Below are positions 2,060 to 61,143 of a DNA stretch of 64,000 nt, one piece after another; within the stretch, counting starts at the first letter, position 1, and every line of letters begins with the position of its first letter. A program made the position numbers and the translations under genes. The notes beneath the pieces are model-generated. The model did not search any database. It had not been told where the DNA came from and saw nothing but the letters and a program-made list of their open reading frames with translations. This stretch comes from Patescibacteria group bacterium UBA2773 (GTDB lineage: Bacteria; Patescibacteriota; Minisyncoccia; Moranbacterales; DUUL01). The stretch lies in NCBI GenBank assembly GCA_002352465.1, contig DEIN01000008.1:64564-128563 (forward strand), in the 5' to 3' direction.

Positions 2060-2488
2060 TCATTCTCTTTCGTCCATGGCTTTATTGGCCATTGCATCAG
2101 CTTCCTTGTTTTTTTCTCTGGGAATATGAAAAAACTCAACATTTTTAAAATTAAGCATTAAATTCCAAATTTCAAGAAACATTTGTTGGATATTTTCGTT
2201 GCTGAGTTTGTATTGATGGTTTAACTGTTTGACCATTAACTCAGAATCAGCATAACATTTCAAATTTGCATTTTTTGCCTTTGCTTTTCCAATTAATTGT
2301 TTGATTTTTTTAAGCGCCAAAATTAAAGCTCGATATTCAGCTTCGTTATTGGTAATCTTATCACCTAAAAATTGGCTATATTTTTTAGTTTCATTTTTAA
2401 ATTTTACTACTGCTCCTGCACCTGCTATGCCTGGGTTGCCTCTTGATCCACCATCGGTGAAAACGTTTATGATATAATCTTCTATCAT
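2060..2488 (-). CDS. rnhA: ribonuclease HI
   Basis: DGGSRGNPG motif, NNEAEYRAL and ADSELMV catalytic-residue motifs; 142 aa. Confidence 0.75.
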   Translation of the reverse strand: MIEDYIINVFTDGGSRGNPGIAGAGAVVKFKNETKKYSQFLGDKITNNEAEYRALILALKKIKQLIGKAKAKNANLKCYADSELMVKQLNHQYKLSNENIQQMFLEIWNLMLNFKNVEFFHIPREKNKEADAMANKAMDERE

Positions 2489-8972: not shown

Positions 8973-10433
8973 TTGAAAAATAAAAAAAATAAATTTAAAA
9001 TAATTTGGCCTCATTTTTTATTGAGATTGTTTTTATTGATTATTTTATTTGCTCTAATCTGGGGAGGATGTTTATTTATAAAAATCTATTCTTTTGAGAA
9101 AATTACAATCTTGAGTAATAATCAAGAACAATCTTCTACAATAATTTCTGCTACTAAAAATTTGATTAGTAATAAATCTAAAAAATTAAAAGGTGAAGAG
9201 AGAAAAAGAATTAACATCCTCTTATTGGGAATGGGAGGCGAAGGCCATAAGGGAGCCGATCTTACTGACACTATAATTTTAGCCTCCGTCGACCCTACAA
9301 ATTATGATACATCTTTAATTTCTATTCCAAGAGATTTATATGTTGAAATTTCTGATACTCAGATTTACACAAAGATCAACGCTGTTTACGCTTATGGTAA
9401 AAAAAATCCTAAAAAGAACGAAAATCCTATCGATTCAATTAAGGAAACTGTTGAAAAAATCACCGGTCAACCAATTGATTATTATTTAACTATTAATTTC
9501 GAAGGATTTAAGCAGGTTATTGATGAACTTAACGGAATTATTATTCAAGTCGAGAAAGATATAATCGACACTCATTATCCTGGACAGGGCACTTCTTATG
9601 AAACTTTCAGAATCAACCAAGGAACCCACTTGGTGAATGGTGACGTGGCTTTGAAGTATGCTCGAGTTAGACACGTAGCTGGCGGTGATTTTGCTCGACT
9701 CAAAAGACAACAAGAGATTATTTCATCTGCCAAAAGAAGGGCTTTATCAATTGAAAATTTTGTTAATCCAATTAAATTTACTAGTTTATTAAATATTGCT
9801 GGAGAAAATATTGAAACAAACATTCAGTTAGATGAAATTCCATCTTTCATCAAGCTTTTCAACAATATTAATACTTATGAAATGAATACCAAAGTTTTAG
9901 ATGCTTGGAGTTCAGATTCTTTATTGGCAGTTTCTCATGTTCTTTTGGGTAACGTAAATGCCTTTATTTTAGTTCCTCGAACTGGTAATTATAAAGAAAT
10001 TCAAAAATTGGTTGATAATATTTTTGATTTAGAGAAACAAGAAAAAGAAAAAGTGGAAATTAAGAAAGAAGCAGCTAATATAGTCATAATGTCAGAAAAT
10101 TATCAAAATAAAAATCAAATCAAAAATTTGTTTAAAAAAATGGGCTATGAAGTTACACTTGAAGAAAATCTTGAAATTACTAAAAAATGTCAAAATGAAA
10201 TTAAAATTCTAACTTCAATGAATGATAAATATTACACGTTGAATGATTTAACAAATAAATTTAATGCTAGAATCGAAGATCTTTATAATTTTATTTATCC
10301 AGGAGATATTATTCTTTGTTTTCCTAGTAAAGAATTAGAAAAACTAGAAAAACAAATCGATCAAATTAATGTTGATGAATTTGAAGGTGGACTAATCTTG
10401 GATGATGATGGTAATATACTTTACAACAATTAA
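8973..10433 (+). CDS. LytR-CpsA-Psr (LCP) family protein with C-terminal extension
   Basis: N-terminal TM; LCP core INILLLGMGGEG...ISIPRDLYV; 486 aa. Confidence 0.8.
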   Translation: MKNKKNKFKIIWPHFLLRLFLLIILFALIWGGCLFIKIYSFEKITILSNNQEQSSTIISATKNLISNKSKKLKGEERKRINILLLGMGGEGHKGADLTDTIILASVDPTNYDTSLISIPRDLYVEISDTQIYTKINAVYAYGKKNPKKNENPIDSIKETVEKITGQPIDYYLTINFEGFKQVIDELNGIIIQVEKDIIDTHYPGQGTSYETFRINQGTHLVNGDVALKYARVRHVAGGDFARLKRQQEIISSAKRRALSIENFVNPIKFTSLLNIAGENIETNIQLDEIPSFIKLFNNINTYEMNTKVLDAWSSDSLLAVSHVLLGNVNAFILVPRTGNYKEIQKLVDNIFDLEKQEKEKVEIKKEAANIVIMSENYQNKNQIKNLFKKMGYEVTLEENLEITKKCQNEIKILTSMNDKYYTLNDLTNKFNARIEDLYNFIYPGDIILCFPSKELEKLEKQIDQINVDEFEGGLILDDDGNILYNN

Positions 10434-10436
10434 GGC

Positions 10437-10612
10437 TTGCTTGTTCGACTCATTTCTTTACTTGTCTCGCTGTAGCACTACCTACCAGTAGGCAGGTTCA
10501 GTGAAAGCGGGTCAAATCCTCTATTGCTTTTCAATGTACCAACTAAGTAAATTTCATGCGCTATTCAGATTTTTCTCGAACTGTGTTCAAACATGCAAGC
10601 CTAGGTGTGAAA
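10437..10612 (+). ncRNA. candidate structured small RNA (ends GGCUUGC...GCAAGCC pair; 6S-like size) - unverified
   Basis: Non-coding 220-nt gap upstream of pth; 5' GGCTTGCTTGTTCGA pairs with 3' TCGAAC...CATGCAAGCC; internal CCTACcaGTAGG hairpin; strand not established. Confidence 0.25.
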
Positions 10613-19244: not shown

Positions 19245-19490
19245 TTTTGTTTTTTAAAAAATTAGGCTATTTTTTTTGAAAATCGCTTCTTATCAAATAT
19301 CTTAAATAGCGCTACATTGATTGGAACAATGGAATAATAGTAAAGCCTACCATTCCAATGATCCCTAAAATTCCTACAAAAATCCAAATAATTTTGATTA
19401 TTTTTTTTCTTCTGTTTATTAGCATTTTTATATAAATATAAATTAATTAACTGGTTAAGTCGGGGATAACAAAAATTTTCATCACCCCCT

Positions 19491-19655
19491 TCTCAATGAT
19501 CTTTCTTTATAAATGTTAGAATTGAAGAAAATAAGGAACTTACTATTATTACAAAAATAAAAATAATCACCAAACCAATTGCTAATTCTTGACAAACCAA
19601 TTCAAGAATTCCAATTATTGCTACCATTCCCAATAAAAAAAATAATAGCATAATC
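19491..19655 (-). CDS. unannotated small hydrophobic peptide (54 aa, 2 TM)
   Basis: ATG...TGA frame read from sequence (MIMLLFFLLGMVAIIGILELV...); below ORF-track length cutoff. Confidence 0.25.
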
Positions 19656-20021
19656 ATCCCTCCTTTATAAACGTTTATTCAAAAAATCGAAAAAGAACTA
19701 AACTTTTTTCTTAAATTAATTATATAATAATATTTTATGAAATCAAATAGAAGTTTTTGTCCGTAATTCGTAATTAGCAACTAGTAATTGGTAATTAGCT
19801 TTTGTTTTTTTGACAACGTTCATTAAACATTCTTTTTTTATTTTCCTCTAAATTTAATTCTCTAAATTTTATTTGCGGATCAATAAGTAATCTTTTGTCA
19901 AAACAAAAGCCACTCTTTCAAGTGGTTTTTGCTTATTATAAAACTTCAAATTTAAATTTAAAATCTTAATAATACGGAGGGCTTTTAGAAATTTCTAAAC
20001 CCTCCTACTGTTTTACTTTTA

Positions 20022-20327
20022 TTAACTCCTCATAACTTTTCTGGTTTTGAAATTAAATTGACTTTTATCCCAGAAAATTAATCTATCATCTTTTTTTTCG
20101 GCCGATAAAACATTCTGGTCTAAAAGATAGACTATATTGTCCATCTTTTTAATGTTTAAAATTTCAAACATTTTTAAATGGAATTGAGCTATATTAATTC
20201 TGTTCTTAATTCCAGCAAACTTTACTGCCGTAAATTTTGTTGAAATATCCTTATTTTTCAAAACTTTGGCGAGGACCAAAGTTCTGATTTTTTCAGAAGT
20301 GAACCAATTAAAAATTTTTATTAACAC
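20022..20327 (-). CDS. hypothetical protein
   Basis: ORF track only. Confidence 0.3.
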   Translation of the reverse strand: MLIKIFNWFTSEKIRTLVLAKVLKNKDISTKFTAVKFAGIKNRINIAQFHLKMFEILNIKKMDNIVYLLDQNVLSAEKKDDRLIFWDKSQFNFKTRKVMRS

Positions 20328-20935
20328 TTTTTCTCCTTCTCCTCCTCAACTTTGCCGGTTATTCAATTGGCTTTAGTTTGGTGCGGATAAATTCACGCAT
20401 TAATCCAAAACTTTGAAGTTGATTTAGAAATTTAAAATTAAAATTTAATTACCATTTAAAGTTTTCTAGATTCCCGCCCGCTTCGCCTAAGTTCCAGCAA
20501 AGCGAGCCTCTGCGAGAATGACAAATAAAGCTAAAACCTTAAAAGGTAATTAAATTAAATTTTTGGGGAAAAATTTCTTTATTCAATTTTCAAAGTTCTT
20601 TTGCTCTTTGCGTTTCCAATTTCTGATTTTAATGTTTAAACATAGCATATTTTGTCACTTTTGTCAATAGAATCGATGGAGTGGTTTTTAATAATGCTTC
20701 GAAAAACTTTGTTTTGAGATTTTATTCATGGTTTCCCGAGGTTCGACCGCTGTCCGTATAGCGGTCGAACTTCGGGAAAGAGGATTTTCATAAATTAAAT
20801 CGCTTAATACTTTATACACAGTACTAACATAATATCAGATATTATATTATTGACTATCTTCAAATACTCTGGTAAACTCTCTTTAGTTGTTGAAACGCAA
20901 TCTTTATTTTATTGAATAATTTTTATTTAAATATA

Positions 20936-21073
20936 ATGCCAAAACGAACCTATCAACCTAAGAAAAAAAAACGAGCTCGAACTCATGGTTTCTTGAAACG
21001 AAGTCAAACTGAAGACGGGAAAAACGTGCTTTTGCGACGAAGACGAAAAGGTCGAGCGAAACTAACAGTTTAG
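20936..21073 (+). CDS. rpmH: 50S ribosomal protein L34
   Basis: Translated by hand: [45 protein letters not shown]; canonical position before rnpA. Confidence 0.9.
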
Positions 21074-21113
21074 TTGACTTTTGTTGGAAGATATTTAACA
21101 TTGAAAATTAAAA

Positions 21114-24323: not shown

Positions 24324-24559
24324 ACAAAATATTTTATGCTTTTTAATTAAGCTTGAATCGAAGATTGGAAATTGCAAATTAAAAAGGTTTTTATAATTTT
24401 AAATTTCGAATTTTAAATTTCGATTCAATGTTTTAATTTTCTAATTTCTAAACGACAAGCTTCGCTTGCAGTCATTTTAAAAATTAAAACATTAAAATGT
24501 TTTAAATTGAATCGAAATTTATAATGCCCCTTGGGTGTAAAATTGAAGAATATTTCTCA

Positions 24560-26406: not shown

Positions 26407-26831
26407 ATAAATATATAAATAATATTTTAAGTTTTTTATTTATCTGTGTTCTTCTATTAATTTTCAGATTAAATAAATTTTGAATTTTAAATTTTAAATT
26501 TTAATTCAATGATTTAATTTATTAATTTTTAAACAACAAGCTTTGCTTGTGTTTTTTAAGAATTAAATAATTCAAAATTGATTCAAAATTCAAAATTTAA
26601 AATTCAAAATTAATCCCTCAATCTCACAATCAAAACTTAATGGTTTAAGTTTTGAAGAATGGTATTGATAAATTTTAAAATTTAAACTTTCTGGATTCCC
26701 GCCTCCGCGGGAATAACAAGATTAAATGCAAAATGAAAATCATAAAATATTGACAATCTAATCAAAATGTACTATGGTATAGTTTGAATTAATGAACAGC
26801 ACTTTAATTTAAAATTTAAAAGGAGAACTTC

Positions 26832-27116
26832 ATGGACAAGGTTAAAAAAAATACTGTAATCGAAGAAAAAAAAGCGGATCAAATCAAGAGCTCAAGGAAA
26901 AGATTTAGGATAGGAGTTTTTCTTTTGATTATAGGTCTTGCCTCAATATTCATCGTTTTATTAGGTTTAGGTTTGCACCCGATAAAACCTGAAGAATTCA
27001 CAACATTATTTCAAATAACCTTGTATTTATCAGCTTATATCGCCTCTTTAATCGCTGCTTGTTTATGCGTCTATTTAGGAGTTATTATTATCTCGGAAGA
27101 GATAATAAAGAAATAA
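26832..27116 (+). CDS. small 2-TM membrane protein inserted between atpD and atpC on the opposite strand
   Basis: Own promoter TTGACA-17-TATGGTAT, strong SD AAAAGGAGAA, followed by 13-bp hairpin terminator at 27199-27250. Confidence 0.5.
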   Translation: MDKVKKNTVIEEKKADQIKSSRKRFRIGVFLLIIGLASIFIVLLGLGLHPIKPEEFTTLFQITLYLSAYIASLIAACLCVYLGVIIISEEIIKK

Positions 27117-27198
27117 TTGTTGAAAAGCCTGCAACCGAAACTTGGTTGCACGGCTTTTCTTTTTGTTAAATTTTGAATGTTCAAGATTTTTTTTCGTG

Positions 27199-27250
27199 GT
27201 TTCCCGAGGTTTGACCGCCGTTCCACTGCGGTCGGACCTCTGTTTTTCTG
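27199..27250 (+). terminator. hairpin terminator, member of TTTCCCGAGGTT(C/T)GACCGC repeat family
   Basis: GAGGUUUGACCGC/GCGGUCGGACCUC stem with G-U wobbles valid only on plus-strand RNA, followed by TGTTTTTCTG. Confidence 0.55.
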
Positions 27251-27591
27251 AGTGTTTTTGTTATTACAAATGTATGTACATGTATACTTACTTTTATAAA
27301 TATGATTAATTTTGCACCCCCCCAAGGGCATCTTAAATTTCAAATTTTGAATTTCAATTCAATTTTAAATTATCTATTTTTAATTTCTGGATTCCCGCCA
27401 TACACCGTCGCTAAAGCTATGGCACACACGGCGCGGGAATGACAACACAAACAGAACATCTTTAGAGATTTTATTATTCAGATGCAGTTCGAGGCGAAAT
27501 TAATAATTTCGACGAGATGTATTAAGTTGATACATCGAGTCGGAATTATTGATTTCAACAAAGAAATGCGCTGAATAAAAAATCTCAACGG

Positions 27592-29001
<1,410 letters not shown>

Positions 29002-32863: not shown

Positions 32864-33029
32864 ATATATTATATCTCTAGTTAATTTGATTGATTACATT
32901 CCAGTATATAGAAGTTTCTTTTTTTGAGTGCAATTCGAGAAAAACCTGAGCAACGAGCAAGATGTATTAAATGAAACATCGAGCGAGTGGTAGAAGGTTC
33001 GACAAAGGAATGCACCAGAAATGGAAATT

Positions 33030-33533
33030 CTAACTTTTCTTAATTTTGGAGATAGCGTTGTTAATTATTTTTTTGTCGGTTTCCTTGTCTTGCTTTTTAT
33101 CTAAAACTTTTTCCAAAGCCAAGCCAGTTAATTCCCCAATTTCCTGTCTGACTTCTTTAATCATTTTTTCTTTTTCAATTTCAATCGTTTTTTTGGTTTC
33201 AATCATAATGTCATCGGCTTCATGTTTAGCCTTTTCCAGAATAATTGCCTTATTCTTCTCTGCCATTTTTTGCATTTTTTCCAAAATCTCCCGAGCTTCC
33301 TTTTTGGCTTCTTTGATTTTTTCATTTCTAGTTTTTTCGGCTTTTTCCAATTGCTCTTGGGAGGATTGAGCATCCTTCAAACCTTTTTCAATTTTTCCAG
33401 TCCGCTCATTCATCGTTTTCAAAAGTGGTTTATAAACCAATTTATATAGAACAACTAGTACGATAGTGAAATTTATCAACTGAGCAATCAGCAATTTAAT
33501 ATCTAAATGAAAAGCTTCGATTATTCCATCCAT
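33030..33533 (-). CDS. atpF: Fo ATP synthase subunit b
   Basis: Single N-terminal TM then long charged coiled coil (KE-rich); operon position. Confidence 0.75.
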   Translation of the reverse strand: MDGIIEAFHLDIKLLIAQLINFTIVLVVLYKLVYKPLLKTMNERTGKIEKGLKDAQSSQEQLEKAEKTRNEKIKEAKKEAREILEKMQKMAEKNKAIILEKAKHEADDIMIETKKTIEIEKEKMIKEVRQEIGELTGLALEKVLDKKQDKETDKKIINNAISKIKKS

Positions 33534-33996: not shown

Positions 33997-34314
33997 TTAT
34001 TAATTAGTTATTAGTTAGAAAGTCTTTAAAGTTTGTAAAGTTGAAAGTTTTTTAGATTCAAGAACAACTTGCAATTAAAAAACTTTATGAACTTTATAAA
34101 CTTTATGAACCTTTCAACCAAATGACTTATCCTAGATTTCTATTTTTGAGTGCAGTCCGAGGAAAATCTTAAATCATAAATCTTTGGACTTCAGAAATTT
34201 AAAATTTAGTACAATTCAAGGAAAACTTGAGCAACGAGCGAGATGTATTAGATAATACATCGAGCGAGTGGCAGAAAATTTGACGAAGAAATGGGCTGAA
34301 TTTTAAATTCCTGA

Positions 34315-35190
34315 CTAGTGTTCGGCAGTGACGGACATAGAAAGGAAGACGAGAGTAAGTATCGAAAAAACCGCTGCCTGCACCACTCCCACTAGAACTT
34401 CTAAAAAGAAAAATGGGATTGGTAGGATGAACGCAAAAATCATGGCCATCGAGGCCAGCAAAACTTCTCCAGCAAAAATATTTCCAAAAAGTCGTAGCGA
34501 CAGAGACATTATTTTGGCAATCTCACCCACAATTTCCATAAATCCTACAAAAAATTTTACCGGATTGATAAACGCGACATTTTTGTCTTCTTTGAATTTT
34601 CTAGGAATTTCCAAAAGAGTTTCAATGTTGATAAATTTGTTAAAATGTTTCCAAGCGCCAATCGTGAAAACCCCGATAAAGTGGCTAAAAAACACGGCGA
34701 ACAAAGCTAAAGCCAAAGTCATATTCAAATCAGCGGTTCCACCTCTGAAAAATGGAATAAAAGCATTGTGTCCTTCGTGCATTTCATAGAAACCGATTGT
34801 TCCGATTATTGGTAAAAGACCAAACCAATTATTGAGTAAGATAAAAAGAAAAAAGGCCAAAGCAACTGGCAATAATTTTTCAGAAGTTTTTCGGTCTCTG
34901 GTAATGGTATCGGCAAAATTCAAACCACCCTCTAAAATCATTTCAGCAAAATTTTGCAAACCTTTTGGAATTTGTCGTATTTTTTTTCTGACTAAAATAA
35001 AAGCGACAACTAAAAATAGTGTCACTGAAAGACTACTAAAGAACGCATTAGTTATTTTAAAATTCCCTATTTGAAAAATTGGTTCAGCGTAGATAGTTGG
35101 TTCATGAGCAACTTCGGTTTGAGTTTCTTGATGAACGTTTGATGGTTGGGTTTGAGTTTCAACTGCTTGAGTCGTTTTGACTTCTGACAT
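34315..35190 (-). CDS. atpB: Fo ATP synthase subunit a
   Basis: Conserved Arg motif LSLRLFGNIFAGEVLL; 291 aa. Confidence 0.9.
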   Translation of the reverse strand: MSEVKTTQAVETQTQPSNVHQETQTEVAHEPTIYAEPIFQIGNFKITNAFFSSLSVTLFLVVAFILVRKKIRQIPKGLQNFAEMILEGGLNFADTITRDRKTSEKLLPVALAFFLFILLNNWFGLLPIIGTIGFYEMHEGHNAFIPFFRGGTADLNMTLALALFAVFFSHFIGVFTIGAWKHFNKFINIETLLEIPRKFKEDKNVAFINPVKFFVGFMEIVGEIAKIMSLSLRLFGNIFAGEVLLASMAMIFAFILPIPFFFLEVLVGVVQAAVFSILTLVFLSMSVTAEH

Positions 35191-35534: not shown

Positions 35535-35676
35535 ATTTTTTTAAATTTTATAATTTTATAATTTTATAAATAATTTTTAATCTCTAATTTTCAAACAACA
35601 AGCTTCGCTTGTATTTTTTAAAAAAATTAAAATTGAGCTCCTGGATTCCCGCCTCCCCGGGAATGACAATGTAAAA

Positions 35677-36273: not shown

Positions 36274-36429
36274 ACGAAATTTTATAAATAAAATTTAATT
36301 TTCAATTCGCAATTTTCAATTTACATTGAATTTTCAATGATTTAATTTTCAAACTCAAACAAGCGAAGCTTGTCATTGAAAATTTTTAAATTGAAAATTG
36401 ATTAAAAATTGTAAATTGAAAATTGAAAA

Positions 36430-48247: not shown

Positions 48248-48396
48248 TTTATTTTTTTGTTATAACGCTAGATGTAAAAAAGTTTTTATTTTTGAGTATA
48301 ATTTGAGGAAAATTTAAGTACCGAGCGAGGCATATTGAATGATACGGTGAGCAAATAACGAAAAATTTGACGAAAAAGTACACCGAAAATGAAGAC

Positions 48397-48717
48397 TTAT
48401 TTAGTCAATTTTTTGCCGTAATCAAGCCACTCAATAGTTCCCATCTCTAGATTAAAAATATTTTTGTATCCCAATTGACTTAATTGCTCTGCGATAAAAT
48501 GGCTTCGGCTTCCACTGCGACAATAAAGAGCGACTTTATCAGTTTTTTTAATTTTTGATTTTTCTAATTCGTCCGAAAAATGAGTTGAAGGAAAGAGCTT
48601 AGCACCTTTGATAAATCCTTGTTGAAACTCAAAAAGCTCCCGAACATCAATGAGATGAACTTTTTTATCTTTTATTAGTTCTTCAAAATCATCAGAAGAT
48701 AATTGCTTAACCGACAT
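48397..48717 (-). CDS. rhodanese-domain sulfurtransferase
   Basis: Active-site loop YCRSGSRS; 106 aa. Confidence 0.8.
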   Translation of the reverse strand: MSVKQLSSDDFEELIKDKKVHLIDVRELFEFQQGFIKGAKLFPSTHFSDELEKSKIKKTDKVALYCRSGSRSHFIAEQLSQLGYKNIFNLEMGTIEWLDYGKKLTK

Positions 48718-49109: not shown

Positions 49110-50078
49110 TTATTTCATTAAAGCTTTTATTATAAGTTCGGTAGCTTGGTTTTCATTTAAACCACGGGTCATTAGGGTTTCTAGTTCTTTTTGGTTGATT
49201 TTTCCCACTGAAGCCTCGTGGGTGACGCGAGCTTGATCATTGGTCACCTCAACGATTGGAACGGCTTTAGCAACTGAATTTTTGCCGATTACAATCTCTT
49301 GGCAATCGATATGACCGAAAGCACCAGGAGCTTTGGCAAAAGTTTCTCCTTGCATCCAAACTTGTCCACCATTTTTGGCAGCCGCTCTCATCGTCACGAG
49401 ACTTTTGCTATTTTCTCCTTCCAAATGAATGATGTCGGTTATTCTGACTTCATCTTTTTTGTTAGTTCCAAAAACTTTGGTTCTAATTTCCGCTCTGGCA
49501 TTTTTCTTCAAAAAAGCTTCTAGGACGATTTCGACTTTTCCAACGGTCCCTTTAGTTAAATTAAAATCACTTTCAAATTGCCCGTCTTCGTCAATTTCAA
49601 TTTTCAATTTCGGTGTCACAGTTGCTCCAGATTTTTCACCGTGATAGTGTTGCTCAATATAAGAAAATTTAGCATTTTTTCCAATCTTAAAAACACCTTC
49701 CATATTGTGATGATTGTCTTTGGAATTAGGAAAAGTGCAATGCGAATGAATAACGACTTCAGAATTTTCTTCTAAAATAATTTCTGGATAAATTGCCTGG
49801 GTTTCTTTTCCTCCTTTTAACCCAAAACAAAAAAACAATGGCTCTTTGATTTTTTGATTTTTTTGAACAATAATTTTGGCTTTTACTCCACTCTCAAGTT
49901 CTTCATAAATAGCTTTAATTCCTTTCGAAAATGTTTGAATTAAAACTTCATTTCCTTCTACGAAAAATTTGTTCTTACTTTTTAGAAGCTCTCTCATTCC
50001 GCACATTTTAGCAGTTTTGATGAAAGCTTCTGGCAATTTTTTATTATTCTTTATTTGAGGTTTTTTATTAAAAAACAT
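49110..50078 (-). CDS. SufB/SufD-family Fe-S assembly protein (short, stand-alone)
   Basis: C-terminal beta-helix and THEASVGKINQKELETLMTRGLNENQATELIIKAL SufBD signature; no sufC/sufS nearby. Confidence 0.55.
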   Translation of the reverse strand: MFFNKKPQIKNNKKLPEAFIKTAKMCGMRELLKSKNKFFVEGNEVLIQTFSKGIKAIYEELESGVKAKIIVQKNQKIKEPLFFCFGLKGGKETQAIYPEIILEENSEVVIHSHCTFPNSKDNHHNMEGVFKIGKNAKFSYIEQHYHGEKSGATVTPKLKIEIDEDGQFESDFNLTKGTVGKVEIVLEAFLKKNARAEIRTKVFGTNKKDEVRITDIIHLEGENSKSLVTMRAAAKNGGQVWMQGETFAKAPGAFGHIDCQEIVIGKNSVAKAVPIVEVTNDQARVTHEASVGKINQKELETLMTRGLNENQATELIIKALMK

Positions 50079-53000
50079 TAAATTACAATATTTATTAATT
50101 TTCCTTTAATATAAATCATTTTTTTAATAGTTTGCCCTTTAAGATGTTTTTTAATTTTTTCAGATTCTTGAGCAATTTTTTTGATTTCATCTTCTTCGAC
50201 TCCGATTGAAACTGTTATTTTATTTCGAACTTTTCCATTGATTTGAATCACTAGTTCAAATTGGTCATCTTCCAAATTTTCCTCATTATAAGCTGGCCAT
50301 TTTTCAAGAAAAATTGATTTATCGTTCTTTAATTTGGTCCAAAATTCTTCAGCAATGTGAGGTGCCATTGGAGCTAAAACTAACGCCATTGTTCTTTTGA
50401 TTTTTTGAGTTTGTCCTAAATTAAAGTTCGCAGAATTTTCTCGAATCCAATTAATAAATTCCATATATCGAGCAATGGCCGTGTTGAAAGAAAGTTTTTC
50501 CAAATCCTCTCCAATCGCCTTGATAGTTTTATCAATCATCTGAGTTTTTTCTACGCCTTCTCCTGCCCCCTCTAAATCAAAAAAAGTTTGCCAAAGTTTT
50601 TTCATGAATCTCGCCATTCCGGCTGCTCCATCATCTCGCCAATCGCCACCTTGAGAAAAATCTCCCAAAAATCTGAGATAAAGCCGAACTGCATCCACTC
50701 CATATTTTTCGATCATCTCATCAGGATTAATGACATTACCTTTAGATTTGCTCATCTTGGCACCATCTTTGGTAATCAAACCGTGACCAAAAAATTTCTT
50801 GTAAGGTTCTTCAAAATCGATAAAGCCCAAGTCGTTCAAAACCATTGTGATAAACCGAGAATACAACAGATGTAAAACGGTATGTTCTTTTCCGCCAATA
50901 TAGCTGTCAACCGGCAACCATTTTTTGGCTCGGTCTTTATTGATAGCCTCGTTATCAAACTCGGTTGAAGAATATCTCAAGAAATACCAAGAAGAATCTA
51001 CAAATGGATCAGAAACGTCCGTTTCTCTTTTAGCTGGTTTACCGCAAACAGGACAAACGGTATTCACAAATTCTACGTTTTTAGCCAACGGCCCTTTGCC
51101 TTTTCCTTCTGGCAAAAAATCAATCATATCTGGCAATTCTACTGGCAAATCTTTTTCTGGCACTGGCACCGCTCCACATTTTTCGCAGTGAATGATTGGA
51201 ATTGGAGGTCCCCAATAACGTTGTCTTGAAACACACCAATCCCTGAGTTTATAGTCGATTGATTTTTCGCCTAGTTTTTTCTCTTCCAGCCATTTGATCA
51301 TTTTTTGCTTGGCTTTTTCCGTTTTTAAACCATCTAAAAATTCAGAGTTGATAGATTTTCCAATCATAGAAGAACAAATTTTTCCTTCTTTTAAGTCTTT
51401 TATAAATTCATCATACGCAATACCACTATTTTGACCTTCAAAAATAATTGGTCCACCTATGGGCTCAACAACGCATTTAATTTCAATCCCAAACTTTTTG
51501 GCGAATTCAAAATCGCGTTCGTCGTGGGCGGGAACGGCCATAATGGCGCCAGTTCCGTAGCCAGACAAAACATAGTCAGCTACCCAAATTGGGATTTCCG
51601 CTTGGTTGACTGGGTTAATAGCTTTGATTCCTTTTATTTCAACGCCAGTTTTTTCTTTTTCTTCTTCTTTCCGTTCTTGTTCAGATTTTCCTTTAGCCGT
51701 ATCAATATATTTCTGCACTTCTTCCCAATTTTTTATTTCATCTTTCATTTTTTCAATCAATTTGTGCTCTGGTGCCAAAACCATATAAGTTGCACCAAAA
51801 AGCGTATCCGGCCTGGTCGTAAAAACTTCAATTTGATTTTCTTTTTTCTCTTCCAATATCTCACTAAGAAGCTCCGGAAATTCCTCTGTTTTCATATCTT
51901 GAATAGTAAAATGTCCATGATTTTTTAAATTAATAACCTTAGCAGGAAGCTCTTTTTTGTATTCTTCTGCTCCTTGAATATGCTTTGGTATATCATCATT
52001 GGAAGTAAAAATAACGATTTTATTTTTCACATATAAATCAATATTTTTAATGATTTTACCTCCATAAAAACTAGATAAAACTTCTCTGCTTTGTTTTCCA
52101 GATTTTCCTGGAGAAACTAAAATTAATTTTTTAATTTTAGTTTTTGTTTCATTTAACCAACGAACCAAGAAAGCTCCGCCAGCAGAATGTCCAATTAAAA
52201 TAGAGTCTTCATTGATATCAATTTTGTCAAAAATCTTTTTCCAATCTGAATATTTTGGTGCCCAATCTTTAGGATATATTTCATTAGAAACTTTTATTCC
52301 TTTTTCTTTTAATTTATTATTTAGCCACAATTTCCAATGTCTTAAATTTTCTGGACCGCTCTCCTTATTCTCTGAGCCTTCTTTAGTAGAATTACTTCCA
52401 TGAACAATCACCACATTTGATATTTGATATTTTGAATTTGTTTGTTTCTTGTTTCTTGTTTCTTGTTTCTTGATTGAAATTTCAAATTTCACCCTTGCAC
52501 CTTCAGATTTTCCAATCCAGTTGCGTTGATTGATTTTGACATCTTCTGACCAGTCAATCCACTCAAGGTTTTTTAAAAGTTTTTCAGCGTAGTCAGTGAT
52601 TTTAAAAAACCATTGCTTAAGTTCTTTTTTCTCAACTTGTGACTCACAACGCTCACACTTCCCTTGAATAACTTGTTCATCAGACAAAACTGTTTTACAC
52701 CACGGACACCAATTGACCTTGGCTTTTTTTTGGTAGGCTAGACCCCTTTTAAAAAGTTGCAAAAATAGCCACTGGGTCCATTTGTAGTATTCTGGTTTAT
52801 AAGTCTCCACAGTTCTGGACCAGTCATACATATTTCCAATAGAAGACAATTGTCTATAAAAATTTTTCTCAGTTCGTTCAGAAACTGTTTTGATGTGCTC
52901 TCCGATTTTCATCGCATAATTTTCGCTATGAATTCCAAAACCGTCCAAGCCAATTGGTTCAAAAATATCAAAGCCTTGCATTTTTTTGTATCGGCCATAG

Positions 53001-53197
53001 GTGTCCACTCCAGTGAAAGTGTAAACTCCGCCGATGTGCAATCCTTCGGCGCTAGGATAAGGAAACATCATTAAATTATGAAATGGTTTTTCAGCTTTAT
53101 CTAAATCGGGTTGATAAAGTTTATCCGTTTCCCATTTATCCTTCCATTTTTTTTCGATTTTTTTGAAATTATATTCTGGAATTTTTTGCTCTGGCAT
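50078..53197 (-). CDS. leuS: leucyl-tRNA synthetase with inserted RBBP9/YdeN-type alpha/beta serine hydrolase domain and shortened CP1 editing domain
   Basis: LeuS N-terminus MFPYPSAEGLHIGG (HIGH variant), WIGKSEGARVKFE, TTRPDTLFGATY, GTGAIMAVPAHDERDF, AKMSKSKGN; insertion VVIVHGSNS...HW / IGHSAGG / TSNDDIP / NHGHF between WIGKSEG and TTRPDT. Confidence 0.9.
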   Translation of the reverse strand: MPEQKIPEYNFKKIEKKWKDKWETDKLYQPDLDKAEKPFHNLMMFPYPSAEGLHIGGVYTFTGVDTYGRYKKMQGFDIFEPIGLDGFGIHSENYAMKIGEHIKTVSERTEKNFYRQLSSIGNMYDWSRTVETYKPEYYKWTQWLFLQLFKRGLAYQKKAKVNWCPWCKTVLSDEQVIQGKCERCESQVEKKELKQWFFKITDYAEKLLKNLEWIDWSEDVKINQRNWIGKSEGARVKFEISIKKQETRNKKQTNSKYQISNVVIVHGSNSTKEGSENKESGPENLRHWKLWLNNKLKEKGIKVSNEIYPKDWAPKYSDWKKIFDKIDINEDSILIGHSAGGAFLVRWLNETKTKIKKLILVSPGKSGKQSREVLSSFYGGKIIKNIDLYVKNKIVIFTSNDDIPKHIQGAEEYKKELPAKVINLKNHGHFTIQDMKTEEFPELLSEILEEKKENQIEVFTTRPDTLFGATYMVLAPEHKLIEKMKDEIKNWEEVQKYIDTAKGKSEQERKEEEKEKTGVEIKGIKAINPVNQAEIPIWVADYVLSGYGTGAIMAVPAHDERDFEFAKKFGIEIKCVVEPIGGPIIFEGQNSGIAYDEFIKDLKEGKICSSMIGKSINSEFLDGLKTEKAKQKMIKWLEEKKLGEKSIDYKLRDWCVSRQRYWGPPIPIIHCEKCGAVPVPEKDLPVELPDMIDFLPEGKGKGPLAKNVEFVNTVCPVCGKPAKRETDVSDPFVDSSWYFLRYSSTEFDNEAINKDRAKKWLPVDSYIGGKEHTVLHLLYSRFITMVLNDLGFIDFEEPYKKFFGHGLITKDGAKMSKSKGNVINPDEMIEKYGVDAVRLYLRFLGDFSQGGDWRDDGAAGMARFMKKLWQTFFDLEGAGEGVEKTQMIDKTIKAIGEDLEKLSFNTAIARYMEFINWIRENSANFNLGQTQKIKRTMALVLAPMAPHIAEEFWTKLKNDKSIFLEKWPAYNEENLEDDQFELVIQINGKVRNKITVSIGVEEDEIKKIAQESEKIKKHLKGQTIKKMIYIKGKLINIVI

Positions 53198-54748: not shown

Positions 54749-54751
54749 TTG

Positions 54752-54824
54752 TGGACCAGACAGGACTTGAACCCGCTACCTCCTCAGTGCAAATGAGGTG
54801 CTCTACCAGGTGAGCTACTGGCCC
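54752..54824 (-). tRNA. tRNA-Ala (anticodon UGC)
   Basis: Hand-folded cloverleaf: acceptor GGGCCAG with G3:U70 wobble, D-arm GCTC/GAGC, anticodon loop TTTGCAC; no encoded CCA. Confidence 0.8.
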
Positions 54825-55019
54825 ATCACAAATTACTGTTAAACTATAAATTTAAGCAATCTTAAACAAGTAAAATTTCTTTACGAAAATTAAAATTTTT
54901 AAGTTAAATTATTTGAAATATTTCCGATACCTATATTCATAGGTTGAGAAAATTTTCAGATAATTTAACTAAAAATTTGAATTTGCAGTAGAAAAAGTGC
55001 TCGACAATAATTCCTCCTG

Positions 55020-55093
55020 TGGGCATATCAAGATTCGAACTTGAGACCTCAACATTATCAGTGTTGCGCTCTAACCAACTGAGCTATATGCCC
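55020..55093 (-). tRNA. tRNA-Ile (anticodon GAU)
   Basis: GGGCATATAGCTCAGTTGGTTAGAGCGCAACACTGATAATGTTGAGGTCTCAAGTTCGAATCTTGATATGCCCA folds as cloverleaf; loop CTGATAA. Confidence 0.85.
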
Positions 55094-58583: not shown

Positions 58584-58765
58584 TCTAAAAACCCTTGAAA
58601 AGGGTAAAACTCCCTCAATTTTACCGTAATGGTTAATTTTTATTTTTCATTACTAAATATTGAATAGTTACTTACTTAATGATAACATATCCTTTCAATG
58701 ATAATCCTGTTTTGGGATATTCCAAAATAGGTTTTAAACTAAACTATAATCTATCATTAAAAAAT

Positions 58766-58987
58766 ATGTCAAAAAATATTTATACAAAGGAATATAAGAG
58801 ATTATTAGAGAAATTAAAACAAGCGAGAAAAGATTCTGGATTAACTCAACTAGAAATTTCTCAAAAAATAGACAAGCCTCAATCTTTTATTTCCAAATGT
58901 GAATTAGGCGAAAGAAGAATCGACCCCATTGAATTATCGAAATTTGCAAAAATTTACAAAAAGGATATTAATTTTTTTATTAAATAA
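58766..58987 (+). CDS. XRE-family HTH protein, candidate R-M controller (C) protein (start adjusted to MSKNIY)
   Basis: HTH LTQLEISQKIDKPQSFISKCELGERRIDPIELSKFAKIY; 73 aa; immediately precedes endonuclease gene; TATAAT ~18 nt upstream of ATG. Confidence 0.7.
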   Translation: MSKNIYTKEYKRLLEKLKQARKDSGLTQLEISQKIDKPQSFISKCELGERRIDPIELSKFAKIYKKDINFFIK

Positions 58988-58996
58988 ATTAGAATT

Positions 58997-59560
58997 ATGA
59001 AAATCAAGCAACACAAAGCAAAAGTTTTTAATCAAGATTGTATATTAGAGCTAATGACTTTTAATAAAAGTGACGGCAAAAAATGGAAAAGACTTTTTGA
59101 TATGTGGAAAAAATTAAAATTAAGTTTGCGTGATTATAAGTCTCGAGAGCCAAATTTTCCTGAAGGATTATCAGAAGTGGCTTTTTGTTTGTTTTCTGGA
59201 TCAAAAAGATTCATATCTTTGAAGGGAAAATCAGCAGCTTCTTTTGATACTTTTAACACTGAAACTGGAAAGGCAGAGCAAATTAAAGCTTGTAGTGTAA
59301 AATCTGATCTAACTTCTTTCGGCCCTAATTCAAAATGGAACGATTTATATTTTTTAGATTTCTACAACGAAGGAAAGCTTGATGGGACTTTTAATGTTTA
59401 TAAAATTCCTTCAGAATCAATTTACAACATGAAAGTTAACAAAAAACAGACAATGAAACAGCAACAAAATCAAGGCAAACGACCAAGATTTAGCATTACT
59501 GACAAAATAATAAAAGATAAAAAGCTAAAACCAATCGCAGAAAACGTAAAAGTTTGGTAA
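58997..59560 (+). CDS. putative type II restriction endonuclease (small, PD-(D/E)xK-like; Bsp6I-like size)
   Basis: 187 aa; candidate catalytic block SFDTFNTETGKAEQIK; convergent and 8 bp from a C5-MTase; downstream of C-protein gene. Confidence 0.55.
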   Translation: MKIKQHKAKVFNQDCILELMTFNKSDGKKWKRLFDMWKKLKLSLRDYKSREPNFPEGLSEVAFCLFSGSKRFISLKGKSAASFDTFNTETGKAEQIKACSVKSDLTSFGPNSKWNDLYFLDFYNEGKLDGTFNVYKIPSESIYNMKVNKKQTMKQQQNQGKRPRFSITDKIIKDKKLKPIAENVKVW

Positions 59561-59568
59561 ATAGAAAA

Positions 59569-61143
59569 TTATTCGATTGCCTTTATCATTTTTTTAGCCA
59601 CAGCTTCCAAAACAGTTACTGTCACGGAATTTCCAGCTTGTTTATATAAAGCAGAATCAGAAAGATCTTTCGGCAAGATGAAGCTTTTAGGAAAACCTTG
59701 TATTCTAAAACATTCCAAAGGGGTTAATTTCCTGATGCCTTTGTTGTCTTTTATAATTGGTACATTATGTCCACCCATTCCCATATTAGCCGTTAAGGTT
59801 GGACAAACACATTTTTTATTTTCTCTAACATATTTTCGTCTCCATTGATAAACAGTGTTTTTATCAACAACAAAATCTTTTATTTTTTCATACAAAGGTT
59901 TACCTTCATAATAATATTTTTTATCAATATTCTTTTCTAATAAATCTTGCACGCTTACATTTAGTTTTACTGGATCAGGAAACTCAAAATTTTCTAAATG
60001 TTTTTTGTCTTTGAATCCAACAATGTAAATTCTTTCTCTATTTTGAGGAACATTTCCAAATTCCATACTATTTAAAACTTTGGCATCTGTGTGATAACCA
60101 AGATCTTTAAGTTTTTTCATTATTATTTTAAATGTTTTTCCTCCATCATGACCTTTCAAATTTTTTACATTTTCTAGTAAAAATCCTTTCGGCTCTCTGG
60201 ATTCGATAATTCTAGCAACATCAAAAAACAAATTCCCTCTTCCTTTTTCGTCTTTGAATCCATGTCTGTGACCAGCGATTGAAAATGCTTGACAAGGAAA
60301 TCCGCCCAAAAGAAAATCAAATTCTGGCAAATCATCAATTCCAATTTCTCTTATATCTTCAACGATTAATTTGGATCTTTTAAAATTTAAATCATAAGTT
60401 TTTTTACAATGTTCATCAAAATCATTAGCAAAAACAGTTTTGAATCCAGTTTTTTCAAATCCTAATCTTATTCCGCCCACTCCAGCAAATAAATCAATAG
60501 TTCTTAGTTTTTTTTGATTGGTGGGTTTAATGTCATTTTTAAAGCTTCTAACAATTTTAACTACAACGCCTCTGATTTCAACTTCTTCTCTGTAAAAGGG
60601 CAACATTGTTTGATTGGCTGGTTGTAATCTAAAGCAATTTTTCTCTCGGTAGATTTTTTTTAAAGTTGTTTCATTATCATCTATTATTGCAACAACAGTT
60701 TGACCATTTTCGGCAGATGATTGTTTTTTTATTACCACAATATCACCATCGAATATTCCTTCCTCAATCATACTTTCTCCTTTTACCTGTAAAGCATAAT
60801 ATTCTTGATTTTTTTGAATTTCTTTTTGCAAAATAGGAATTGTTCCTCTTTCAACTTCAATCGCTTCGATTGGTTTTCCGGCCGTAATAATACCAACAAT
60901 AGGAATATTGATTATTTTTTTTATTTTATTTTTTATTACCGGAACAATGCCTCTAGCAGAACTCCCTTCTTTATTTAGAAAACCTTTTTCTGATAAAGTT
61001 TGAATATGCTGATGCACTGTAGAAATAGCAGAAAGTTTAAAATGTTTTTTTATTTCTTCAAAAGTAGGAGATATTTTATTCTTTTTTATGTAACTTTTAA
61101 TGTAGTCCAAAATTTGTTTTTGTCTTTTTGTCAGAGTTGGCAT
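59569..61143 (-). CDS. LexA (wHTH + S24 autopeptidase) fused in-frame to DNA (cytosine-5)-methyltransferase
   Basis: Residues 1-200 align with LexA along its length (LTKRQKQILDYI...SARGI; cleavage-site AG in VGIITAGKP; Ser in KGESM; Lys in TTLKKIYR); residues ~205-524 carry C5-MTase motifs I FAGVGG, IV GFPCQAFS, VI ENV, VIII QNRERIYIVG, X QAGNSV. Confidence 0.85.
   Translation of the reverse strand: MPTLTKRQKQILDYIKSYIKKNKISPTFEEIKKHFKLSAISTVHQHIQTLSEKGFLNKEGSSARGIVPVIKNKIKKIINIPIVGIITAGKPIEAIEVERGTIPILQKEIQKNQEYYALQVKGESMIEEGIFDGDIVVIKKQSSAENGQTVVAIIDDNETTLKKIYREKNCFRLQPANQTMLPFYREEVEIRGVVVKIVRSFKNDIKPTNQKKLRTIDLFAGVGGIRLGFEKTGFKTVFANDFDEHCKKTYDLNFKRSKLIVEDIREIGIDDLPEFDFLLGGFPCQAFSIAGHRHGFKDEKGRGNLFFDVARIIESREPKGFLLENVKNLKGHDGGKTFKIIMKKLKDLGYHTDAKVLNSMEFGNVPQNRERIYIVGFKDKKHLENFEFPDPVKLNVSVQDLLEKNIDKKYYYEGKPLYEKIKDFVVDKNTVYQWRRKYVRENKKCVCPTLTANMGMGGHNVPIIKDNKGIRKLTPLECFRIQGFPKSFILPKDLSDSALYKQAGNSVTVTVLEAVAKKMIKAIE

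Follow-up and report, generated by a model that had tools for sequence, protein, structure and literature searches.

The window, by which we mean the whole 64 kb stretch of DNA analysed here, has a GC content of about 30%, and its minus strand encodes an atpBEFHAGDC operon. Between atpF (33030–33533, minus strand) and atpH lies a full palindromic element (c3; 32906–33036) whose consensus strand, the one that folds better, is the plus strand and runs antisense to the genes. Its folding energy is −34.7 kcal/mol on the plus strand versus −21.7 kcal/mol on the minus strand, and its outer stem opens with the G of the TAG (33030–33032) that terminates atpF. A sequence-only reading of this DNA had described this element as one of five similar copies following minus-strand genes; all five are real and lie at or near where it placed them, with true extents somewhat larger, and the gene identities that it proposed are backed by Pfam. 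Like c3, the other four have the plus strand as their consensus strand. Copy c2 (27460–27592; 127 bits with a covariance model) follows atpD (27592–28971, minus strand; stop codon TAG at 27592–27594) and is the best-formed hairpin of the set (−52.4 kcal/mol, z = −11.9), and c4 (34188–34317; 108 bits) lies directly after the TAG stop codon (34315–34317) of atpB (34315–35190, minus strand). Copy c5 (48274–48404; 99.9 bits) follows the rhodanese gene (48397–48717, minus strand), with the stop codon TAA (48397–48399) overlapping the outer stem and a structure that is partly decayed. Copy c1 (1916–2069; 73 bits) follows the RNase H gene rnhA (2060–2488, minus strand), whose TGA stop codon (2060–2062) is inside the outer stem, and has a 20-nt secondary insertion in one arm. 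The coordinates of these genes are those of the open reading frame list, and synteny with annotated loci supports their identities.

An HMM built from the five first-reported copies was searched against the window with nhmmer and recovers all of them at E = 8e-19 to 4e-30, with c3 at 4e-30. It also matches two segments that had not been listed, so that the count of five holds for the copies named but falls one short for the window. The first is a sixth, diverged copy (c6; 10434–10608) with a minus-strand match at 10510–10601 (E = 1e-7; covariance model score 62.5 bits at 10472–10608). It follows a plus-strand LytR-family gene (8973–10433; identified from the open reading frame list, Pfam, and the same synteny), and its consensus strand is the minus strand and so again antisense to the flanking gene. 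Its outer stem (GGCTTGC...GCAAGCC) begins directly after the TAA stop codon (10431–10433), and one arm carries a secondary insertion of ~48 nt. The second is a partial match at 34134–34169 (E = 4e-5) within c4b (about 34125–34197, plus strand), what is left of a second tandem copy after internal deletion, which retains one full arm and a short substitute hairpin; a related genome, L063, has two full tandem copies at the matching junction. The covariance model gives 62–127 bits for the six window copies (73–127 for the five first reported, 114 for c3) and no further window match at E < 0.1, and the window thus contains six full copies and one remnant. The element is about 130 nt long (120–155 nt) and is without an open reading frame.

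Copies outside the window were sought in five or six related species, across ~250 kb of syntenic sequence reached through homologues of atpG, LytR and MurJ and the contigs that carry them. The loci sampled group as L061/L071/L074, L063/L064/L065, L072/L075, L066/L073/L077, L069/L076, and L024/L055, where L072/L075 is a single contig that is labelled separately from L063 and whose same-species status with it is not established. These homologues carry the names Candidatus Moranbacteria, Moraniibacteriota or Patescibacteria, and the host is therefore a member of the CPR. The covariance model finds 18 further distinct copies in this DNA. Exact-pattern scans of genome and metagenome contigs for the apical stem return almost exclusively chance palindromes, the true matches being L024 and L055, which are one organism; the remaining relative copies came through synteny. 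The L024 record (CAYWJP010000014.1) is titled 'uncultured Bdellovibrionales bacterium'; with atp operon DNA 75–88% identical to the window, this title is probably a mislabel. Density in the sampled regions is apparently about one copy per 10–17 kb.

The sequence-only reading had noted a hairpin with a conserved stem (GATGTAT/ATACATC) and a variable loop, flanked by CGAGC direct repeats. The apex is present as described, but it is the entire element, not the apex alone, that forms the hairpin: each copy is a single long imperfect palindrome of about 50 bp. From base to apex on the better-folding strand it consists of an AU-rich outer stem of 12–16 bp with copy-specific sequence, a 4-bp and a 3-bp stem (UUC/GAA) with purine-only internal loops and a 6-bp covarying stem, a middle segment specific to each subfamily, a 2-bp stem, a tandem G·A/A·G motif, and an apical stem of 7–8 bp closed by a loop of 4–7 nt. 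The CGAGC repeats are real and reflect this tandem-GA architecture inside the hairpin, since (CGAG)n is self-pairing, in the order C-G, G·A, A·G, and G-C. Every copy has complementary ends, whereas the outer 10–15 nt differ among copies and share only a loose RAR-TTTC-T-run pattern.

The fold is maintained by compensatory change. The covariance model scores the 24 distinct copies at 62–132 bits, with opposite-strand scores about 90 bits lower. Compensatory changes were examined over 35 modelled pairs in these 24 copies (alignment A14, which is itself fitted to the model), and standard pairing occurs in 93.4% of pair cells versus 76% with shuffled partners and 33–45% with slid partners. Changes on both sides are seen in 27 of the 35 pairs, the double-change cells number 176 where 63 are expected, and none of 500 shuffles attains any observed measure of pairing or covariation. 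Because A14 is fitted to the model it matters that the same covariation picture emerges from 19 copies aligned independently with MAFFT. On the consensus strand the well-conserved positions that remain unpaired are invariant or nearly so and are all purines (G59/A60/G83/A84, A34, A45, A48, and A127): A34, A45, A48, A60, A84, and A127 are found in 24/24 copies, and the tandem GA/GA in 21–24 of the 24. It would be a negligible prospect that the family is a chance likeness of AT-rich DNA, or a set of ordinary terminators, even in a genome of about 30% GC that is rich in other AT-rich repeats, and both are refuted by the nhmmer E values (to 1e-30), the covariance model scores (to 132 bits), the 0/500 shuffles, and the lack of a U-tract. 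The similarity is not low-complexity, and further copies do exist elsewhere, in the 18 from related genomes; the opposite finding on either point had been named beforehand as what would overturn the family.

Three independent copies (c1 at ~2021–2040, c6 at ~10459–10506, and the L073 copy L073b within 1928–2079) carry secondary insertions of 20–48 nt at the same position of the element, an internal loop beside CTTTG. The c1 and c6 inserts have a CTACCAG...CAGG motif in common, and that of L073b is a GC-rich mini-hairpin, CCCGCCAAAGGCGGG.

The two strands of the element are not equivalent. In 18 of 19 copies the better fold is on the strand antisense to the flanking gene, and the RNAalifold energy is −16.9 kcal/mol for the consensus strand versus −6.7 kcal/mol for the sense strand. 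On the consensus strand G·U cells outnumber A·C cells by 62:19 in alignment A7 (p about 2e-6) and by 84:19 in A14, ratios that are somewhat inflated as the pair set was derived on that strand. Against this, folding the sense strand predicts no pairs beyond these and recovers only some of them. A simple bias toward deamination of the coding strand or the lagging-strand template would be expected to produce the reverse asymmetry. It is thus on the antisense strand of the flanking gene that selection maintains the fold, a property that no described repeat family explains. From the free covariation of the stems, the invariant unpaired purines, and the tolerance of G·U but not A·C, the active form would be a folded single strand antisense to the gene, which in turn would imply recognition by a trans-acting protein.

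Elements of this kind could act in cis in the operon mRNA, as a hairpin starting at the stop codon that stabilises the upstream cistron, serves as an RNase III-type processing site, or modulates termination and re-initiation through being melted by the terminating ribosome, resembling REP and ERIC sequences within 15 nt of stop codons. That the copies lie within transcription units, immediately past the stop codon at 11 junctions, suits such a role, as does the stability that sense-strand hairpins still have (e.g. −36.9 kcal/mol and z = −8.7 for c2), and the copy after atpD is kept in all six species with compensatory changes and with identity above that of third codon positions. On the mRNA strand, however, the wobbles become A·C mismatches, the internal loops become pyrimidine-only UC/UC, the consensus fold is the weaker of the two, there is no U-tract, and presence of the element varies between close relatives at junctions of essential genes. 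We regard this reading as unlikely although worth keeping in view. The role in mRNA processing or stability that had been offered as a candidate is accordingly weakened, because the covariation, G·U wobbles, and invariant unpaired purines favor the antisense strand.

That same evidence fits a second candidate, a small RNA, here in the form of a structured antisense non-coding RNA family transcribed opposite the host gene and acting on the 3′ end of the neighboring mRNA or binding a protein. Covarying stems, a G·U preference, and invariant unpaired purines including tandem sheared-GA pairs are the classical signature of a functional RNA, and orientation is antisense at 11 of 12 junctions. But on the consensus strand sigma-70-like promoter sites occur at shuffle expectation with none at a fixed upstream distance and no positionally conserved −10, and no terminator follows the hairpin. 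Rfam offers no match: a scan of the window at gathering threshold reports three tRNAs only, and a permissive scan of the elements gives only sub-threshold matches to generic miRNA-precursor hairpins. Insertion polymorphism and copy-specific outer stems are more in keeping with a repeat element than with a collection of genes, and one copy (L069c) is co-oriented with its genes. The small-RNA candidate is thus favored by the strand evidence and disfavored by the missing signals, and we consider it improbable.

The sequence-only reading had also concluded that these are not plain intrinsic terminators as no U-run follows the hairpin in the gene direction, and the sequence upholds this. The combination of a GC-rich hairpin and a U-tract is absent from the copies: read along the gene, what comes after the hairpin is an A-run, and on the other strand a T-run precedes the hairpin.

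The copies occupy 12 distinct gene junctions, and at 11 of these the consensus strand is antisense to the gene (one-sided binomial p = 0.003), namely after rnhA, manC, the LytR-family gene, atpI, atpB (two tandem copies), atpF, atpH, atpA, atpD, DUF1858, and the rhodanese gene. The proposed abutment of stop codons is confirmed, with the stop codon at all 11 ending between 1 nt inside and 8 nt outside (−1 to +8) the first modelled base pair, and in several copies the palindrome extends through the stop codon. Elements otherwise remain outside open reading frames, their overlap being limited to the stop codon. This adjacency is not mere lack of room, because the convergent spacer beyond manC offered the L073b copy at least 140 nt of free intergenic DNA and the copy nonetheless adjoins the stop codon, and longer spacers were also available to the copies after atpH, atpD, and the rhodanese gene. 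The twelfth junction is the exception, with L069c co-oriented with its genes, 9 nt upstream of a start codon, and beside a TAA that is not a stop codon. Gene direction, with L069c as its one exception, predicts orientation slightly better than does a fixed chromosomal strand. An explanation of orientation by replication strand draws no support from the window, where GC skew tracks the gene strand and DnaA boxes are at chance, neither of which indicates a replication direction.

Orthologous junctions both with and without the element are found at atpF|atpH, atpB|atpE, atpA|atpG, rnhA|manC, LytR|pth, and DUF1858|rhodanese, and the empty spacers are mostly 0–20 nt. The atpF|atpH junction is filled in the window only and is empty in L061, L024, L063, and L069 (spacers of 0–18 nt). 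Following atpB, a copy is present in the window, L061, L063, and L069 and absent from L024, and following atpA only L024/L055 has one, the junction being empty in the other species compared. The rnhA copy (c1) is shared by the window and L073 but there is none in L071, the closest relative (18 nt), or in L072 (78-nt spacer); the LytR copy (c6) is present in the window, and the junction is empty in L071 and L072 (18–20 nt). Only L077 contains a copy after DUF1858, inserted exactly between the TAA and an 8–11 nt spacer, with four others empty. Orthologues of c5 are present in L074 (in a short form), L075, and L077, with no copy in L076. An apparent polymorphism between L063 and L064 after atpH was discarded as an N-masked stretch. 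At the junctions compared it is only ever the element that is gained or lost and never a flanking gene, synteny being conserved. Because presence differs between close relatives at these sites, the element is dispensable there.

Two pairs of paralogs, L063a/L064c and L073b/L077r, each occupy different junctions of one genome and have cores that are 95.9% identical; the outer stems differ within both pairs, yet each is self-complementary. The third candidate role in the sequence-only reading was a short mobile element, non-autonomous and aimed at sites near stop codons, and this is the best fit of the three offered, because of the filled and empty junctions, the ~96% identical cores of paralogs, and the location of L073b at a stop codon in spite of the free DNA beside it.

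The copy after atpD behaves differently from these and is present in all six species examined. Its six orthologues (alignment A9) have double changes in 20 of 44 pairs. The 73-nt core is 94.5–98.6% identical among the window, L055, and L063 species, with the window core (c2) 94.5–95.9% identical to those of L055 and L063, whereas the atpD genes of these species are about 83% identical overall and only 60–64% at third codon positions. The L066 and L069 copies represent another conserved variant (88–89% identity), and the spacer adjoining the element is poorly conserved. The after-atpD copy is conserved far above neutral expectation, and simple concerted evolution within a genome does not explain this because the orthologues are more alike than the paralogs. 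Purifying selection at the locus, gene conversion limited to the core, and repeated re-insertion of a conserved master copy are all options.

About 1 kb of extra DNA (26407–27459) separates c2 from atpC in the window, where the matching L055 spacer is only ~40 nt. It contains two overlapping open reading frames of 90–94 aa without a significant Pfam match, as well as several repeats. The atpD–atpC spacer ranges from 164 to 778 nt among relatives, and looks like an insertion hot spot.

We looked for the hallmarks of known mobile elements. In the way of a MITE, the element is small, has no coding content, and is polymorphic for presence at orthologous sites, but no autonomous insertion sequence with matching ends is found in ~310 kb (window plus related loci), and the 30 window open reading frames searched with Pfam include no transposase, recombinase, or integrase. 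The sole Y1_Tnp gene is in L066 (14954–15379; also L067 5113–5538), has no window homologue by tblastn, and is flanked by unrelated hairpins. It encodes an IS200-like Y1 transposase of 141 aa just downstream of the atp operon, and the hairpins are CACCAGC..GCTGGTG and CACTAGC..GCTAGTG.

The flanks were checked for target-site duplications, as the sequence-only reading had suggested, and none is demonstrable. TA on both sides is clean in only 5 of 22 copies, with termini such as TA|GAAG, and longer direct repeats at the flanks are not significant (p = 0.05–0.99), including the 9-nt repeat AACAATTAA that flanks c6 (p about 0.12). A YTAR duplication of the IS5 type was rejected, since the flanks are inverted and not direct. 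The elements also do not resemble an IS200/IS605-derived PATE, which has subterminal hairpins but no terminal inverted repeats and inserts 3′ of a fixed tetra- or pentanucleotide, each element here being one palindrome with no fixed flanking tetranucleotide besides the TAA or TAG stop codon.

Several known repeat families offer points of comparison. ERIC or IRU elements of enterobacteria are imperfect palindromes of about 127 bp that are non-coding, located in transcribed intergenic regions, and often touch stop or start codons. The elements described here are like them in size, in forming a single long imperfect hairpin, in having no coding capacity, and in being present or absent at orthologous sites; they differ in unrelated sequence, a CPR host, near-fixed orientation (11/12), the antisense-strand fold, and copy-specific outer stems. 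Correia elements (CREE/NEMIS) of Neisseria are MITE-like palindromes of 100–155 bp that are co-transcribed, have TATAG-like termini, and insert at TA; they have conserved 26-bp inverted repeats, a regular TA duplication, IHF sites, and promoters. The five copies with TA on both flanks are reminiscent of these, but here the termini vary, 17 of 22 copies show no demonstrable TA duplication, and there is no promoter signal. To our knowledge the machinery that mobilises ERIC and Correia elements has not been identified.

REP/REPIN sequences are mobilised by RAYTs (Y1 HUH enzymes) as a hairpin unit of ~100 nt that is recognised as folded single-stranded DNA with strand asymmetry. REPs occupy extragenic DNA, often immediately past a stop codon, and those within 15 nt of a stop codon affect terminating ribosomes. 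Rickettsia palindromic elements (RPE), in common with the present family, are about 100–150 nt, belong to a genome that is AT-rich and reduced, and stay in place at orthologous sites over long spans of time, but are frequently inserted in frame inside open reading frames and then translated, whereas the elements here stay outside them with at most the stop codon shared. The resemblance to REP/REPIN has its limits, as alignment A14 shows no conserved GTAG or CGTC tag of the kind described for REPs (PMC3733652), the arms are not REP palindromes, and no RAYT was found in the sampled loci. We found no description in the literature of repeats like these in CPR bacteria.

It is highly improbable that the copies are attC-like sites, or sites for some other tyrosine or serine recombinase, marking the boundaries of gene cassettes. 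Integron attC sites are imperfect palindromes of 60–140 nt that lie after stop codons in fixed orientation, fold on the strand complementary to the open reading frame, and have conserved unpaired bases for recognition, but the resemblance in palindromy, position, orientation, and folding strand is superficial. The element ends lack RYYYAAC or GTTRRRY core sites, no integrase is present in the scanned open reading frames, and the neighbors are core housekeeping genes (atp operon, rnhA, pth) that show no cassette behavior and whose conserved synteny already refutes this reading in large part.

With tests for a MITE, REPIN, attC, PATE, or terminator having failed or come out incomplete, the elements would constitute a new family outside the named ones. 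The best-supported account, by analogy with ERIC, Correia, and REPIN, is that of a new palindromic repeat family, a non-autonomous ~130-nt repeat, specific to a Moranbacteria-like CPR clade, that has time and again settled within the first few nucleotides past a stop codon and nearly always points the same way, and to this we assign a probability of about 0.5. We infer mobility through the folded single strand: a trans-acting protein that is not encoded nearby would recognise the folded strand of the element, in a manner analogous to RAYT, IS200-type, or integron enzymes on folded single-stranded DNA, and would copy or insert it beside a TAA or TAG. Once inserted within an operon, the element would presumably be co-transcribed, with the mRNA bearing the weaker-folding complement, through which any effect on the host mRNA might arise, and some copies, such as that after atpD, have been retained long-term.

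Several observations sit uneasily with this account. No transposase, recombinase, or autonomous partner is present in the ~310 kb, no target-site duplication is demonstrable, and the terminal 10–15 nt vary, which is unusual for inverted repeats bound by a transposase. The atpD copy, present in six species, looks like the product of host purifying selection or gene conversion and not a decaying selfish insert, and L069c is oriented oppositely relative to its genes. Moreover, if the genes are co-oriented with replication, the favored strand is the template both for the leading strand and for transcription, neither of which is usually exposed as single-stranded DNA.

A bolder interpretation is that the elements represent an undescribed class of structured nucleic acid targeting translation stop sites, either a mobile folded strand with a CPR protein that inserts it directionally at TAA or TAG, or an antisense RNA module that has been domesticated to control genes from their 3′ ends. 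We hold this to be rather doubtful; if true, the private outer stems would ensure folding in cis among copies on one polycistronic transcript. For the palindromic repeat family as we prefer to read it, the interest is more general. CPR or Patescibacteria genomes are seen as streamlined and repeat-poor, and their repertoires of non-coding RNAs and mobile elements are almost unexplored. The family offers a testable handle on how repeats of the ERIC and Correia type choose their site and orientation, and on their domestication at gene ends, and the covariance model is usable for a census of the family and a search for a co-distributed protein.

Other small repeats are present in the same part of the window. 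A second family, GC-rich palindromes of the form CTGGATTCCCGC...GCGGGAAT(G/A)ACA, is located at 26690–26722, 27387–27447, and 35640–35672; all are in spacers of the atp region, one is directly beside c2, and one has a 33-nt loop insertion. AT-rich repeats of families D1–D3 (24397–24489, 26478–26570, 35540–35632, and 36306–36398) end in an ACAAGC-TTCG-GCTTGT hairpin followed by a plus-strand T-run. They look like terminators, and three of the four are among minus-strand genes in or beside the atp operon, with the T-run on the antisense side.

Upstream of rpmH–rnpA–yidC–jag there is a segment of ~1.9 kb (19245–21113) that is nearly free of open reading frames, and parAB is 15 kb distant, which makes the neighborhood origin-like; DnaA-box matches are at chance level, however, and no dnaA gene was seen. 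Adjacent tRNA-Ala(TGC) and tRNA-Ile(GAT) genes are present at 54751–55093, a pair that is the usual content of a 16S–23S spacer, and Rfam reports no rRNA anywhere in the 64-kb window. A class-I aminoacyl-tRNA synthetase gene (50078–53197) has orthologues in L075 (3450–6500), L076 (4244–8152), and L077 (3259–7002), and the products range from 1016 to 1302 aa among relatives. In relatives the synthetase gene contains internal matches to domains of the hydrolase, NUDIX, and GIY-YIG types, which suggest that this variation may reflect either inserted domains or an intein or homing-endonuclease insertion. Finally, a probable restriction-modification cluster spans 58679–61143, and includes genes for an HTH_3 regulator (58679–58987) and a Bsp6I-like restriction endonuclease (58997–59560), followed on the opposite strand by a 524-aa open reading frame (59569–61143).
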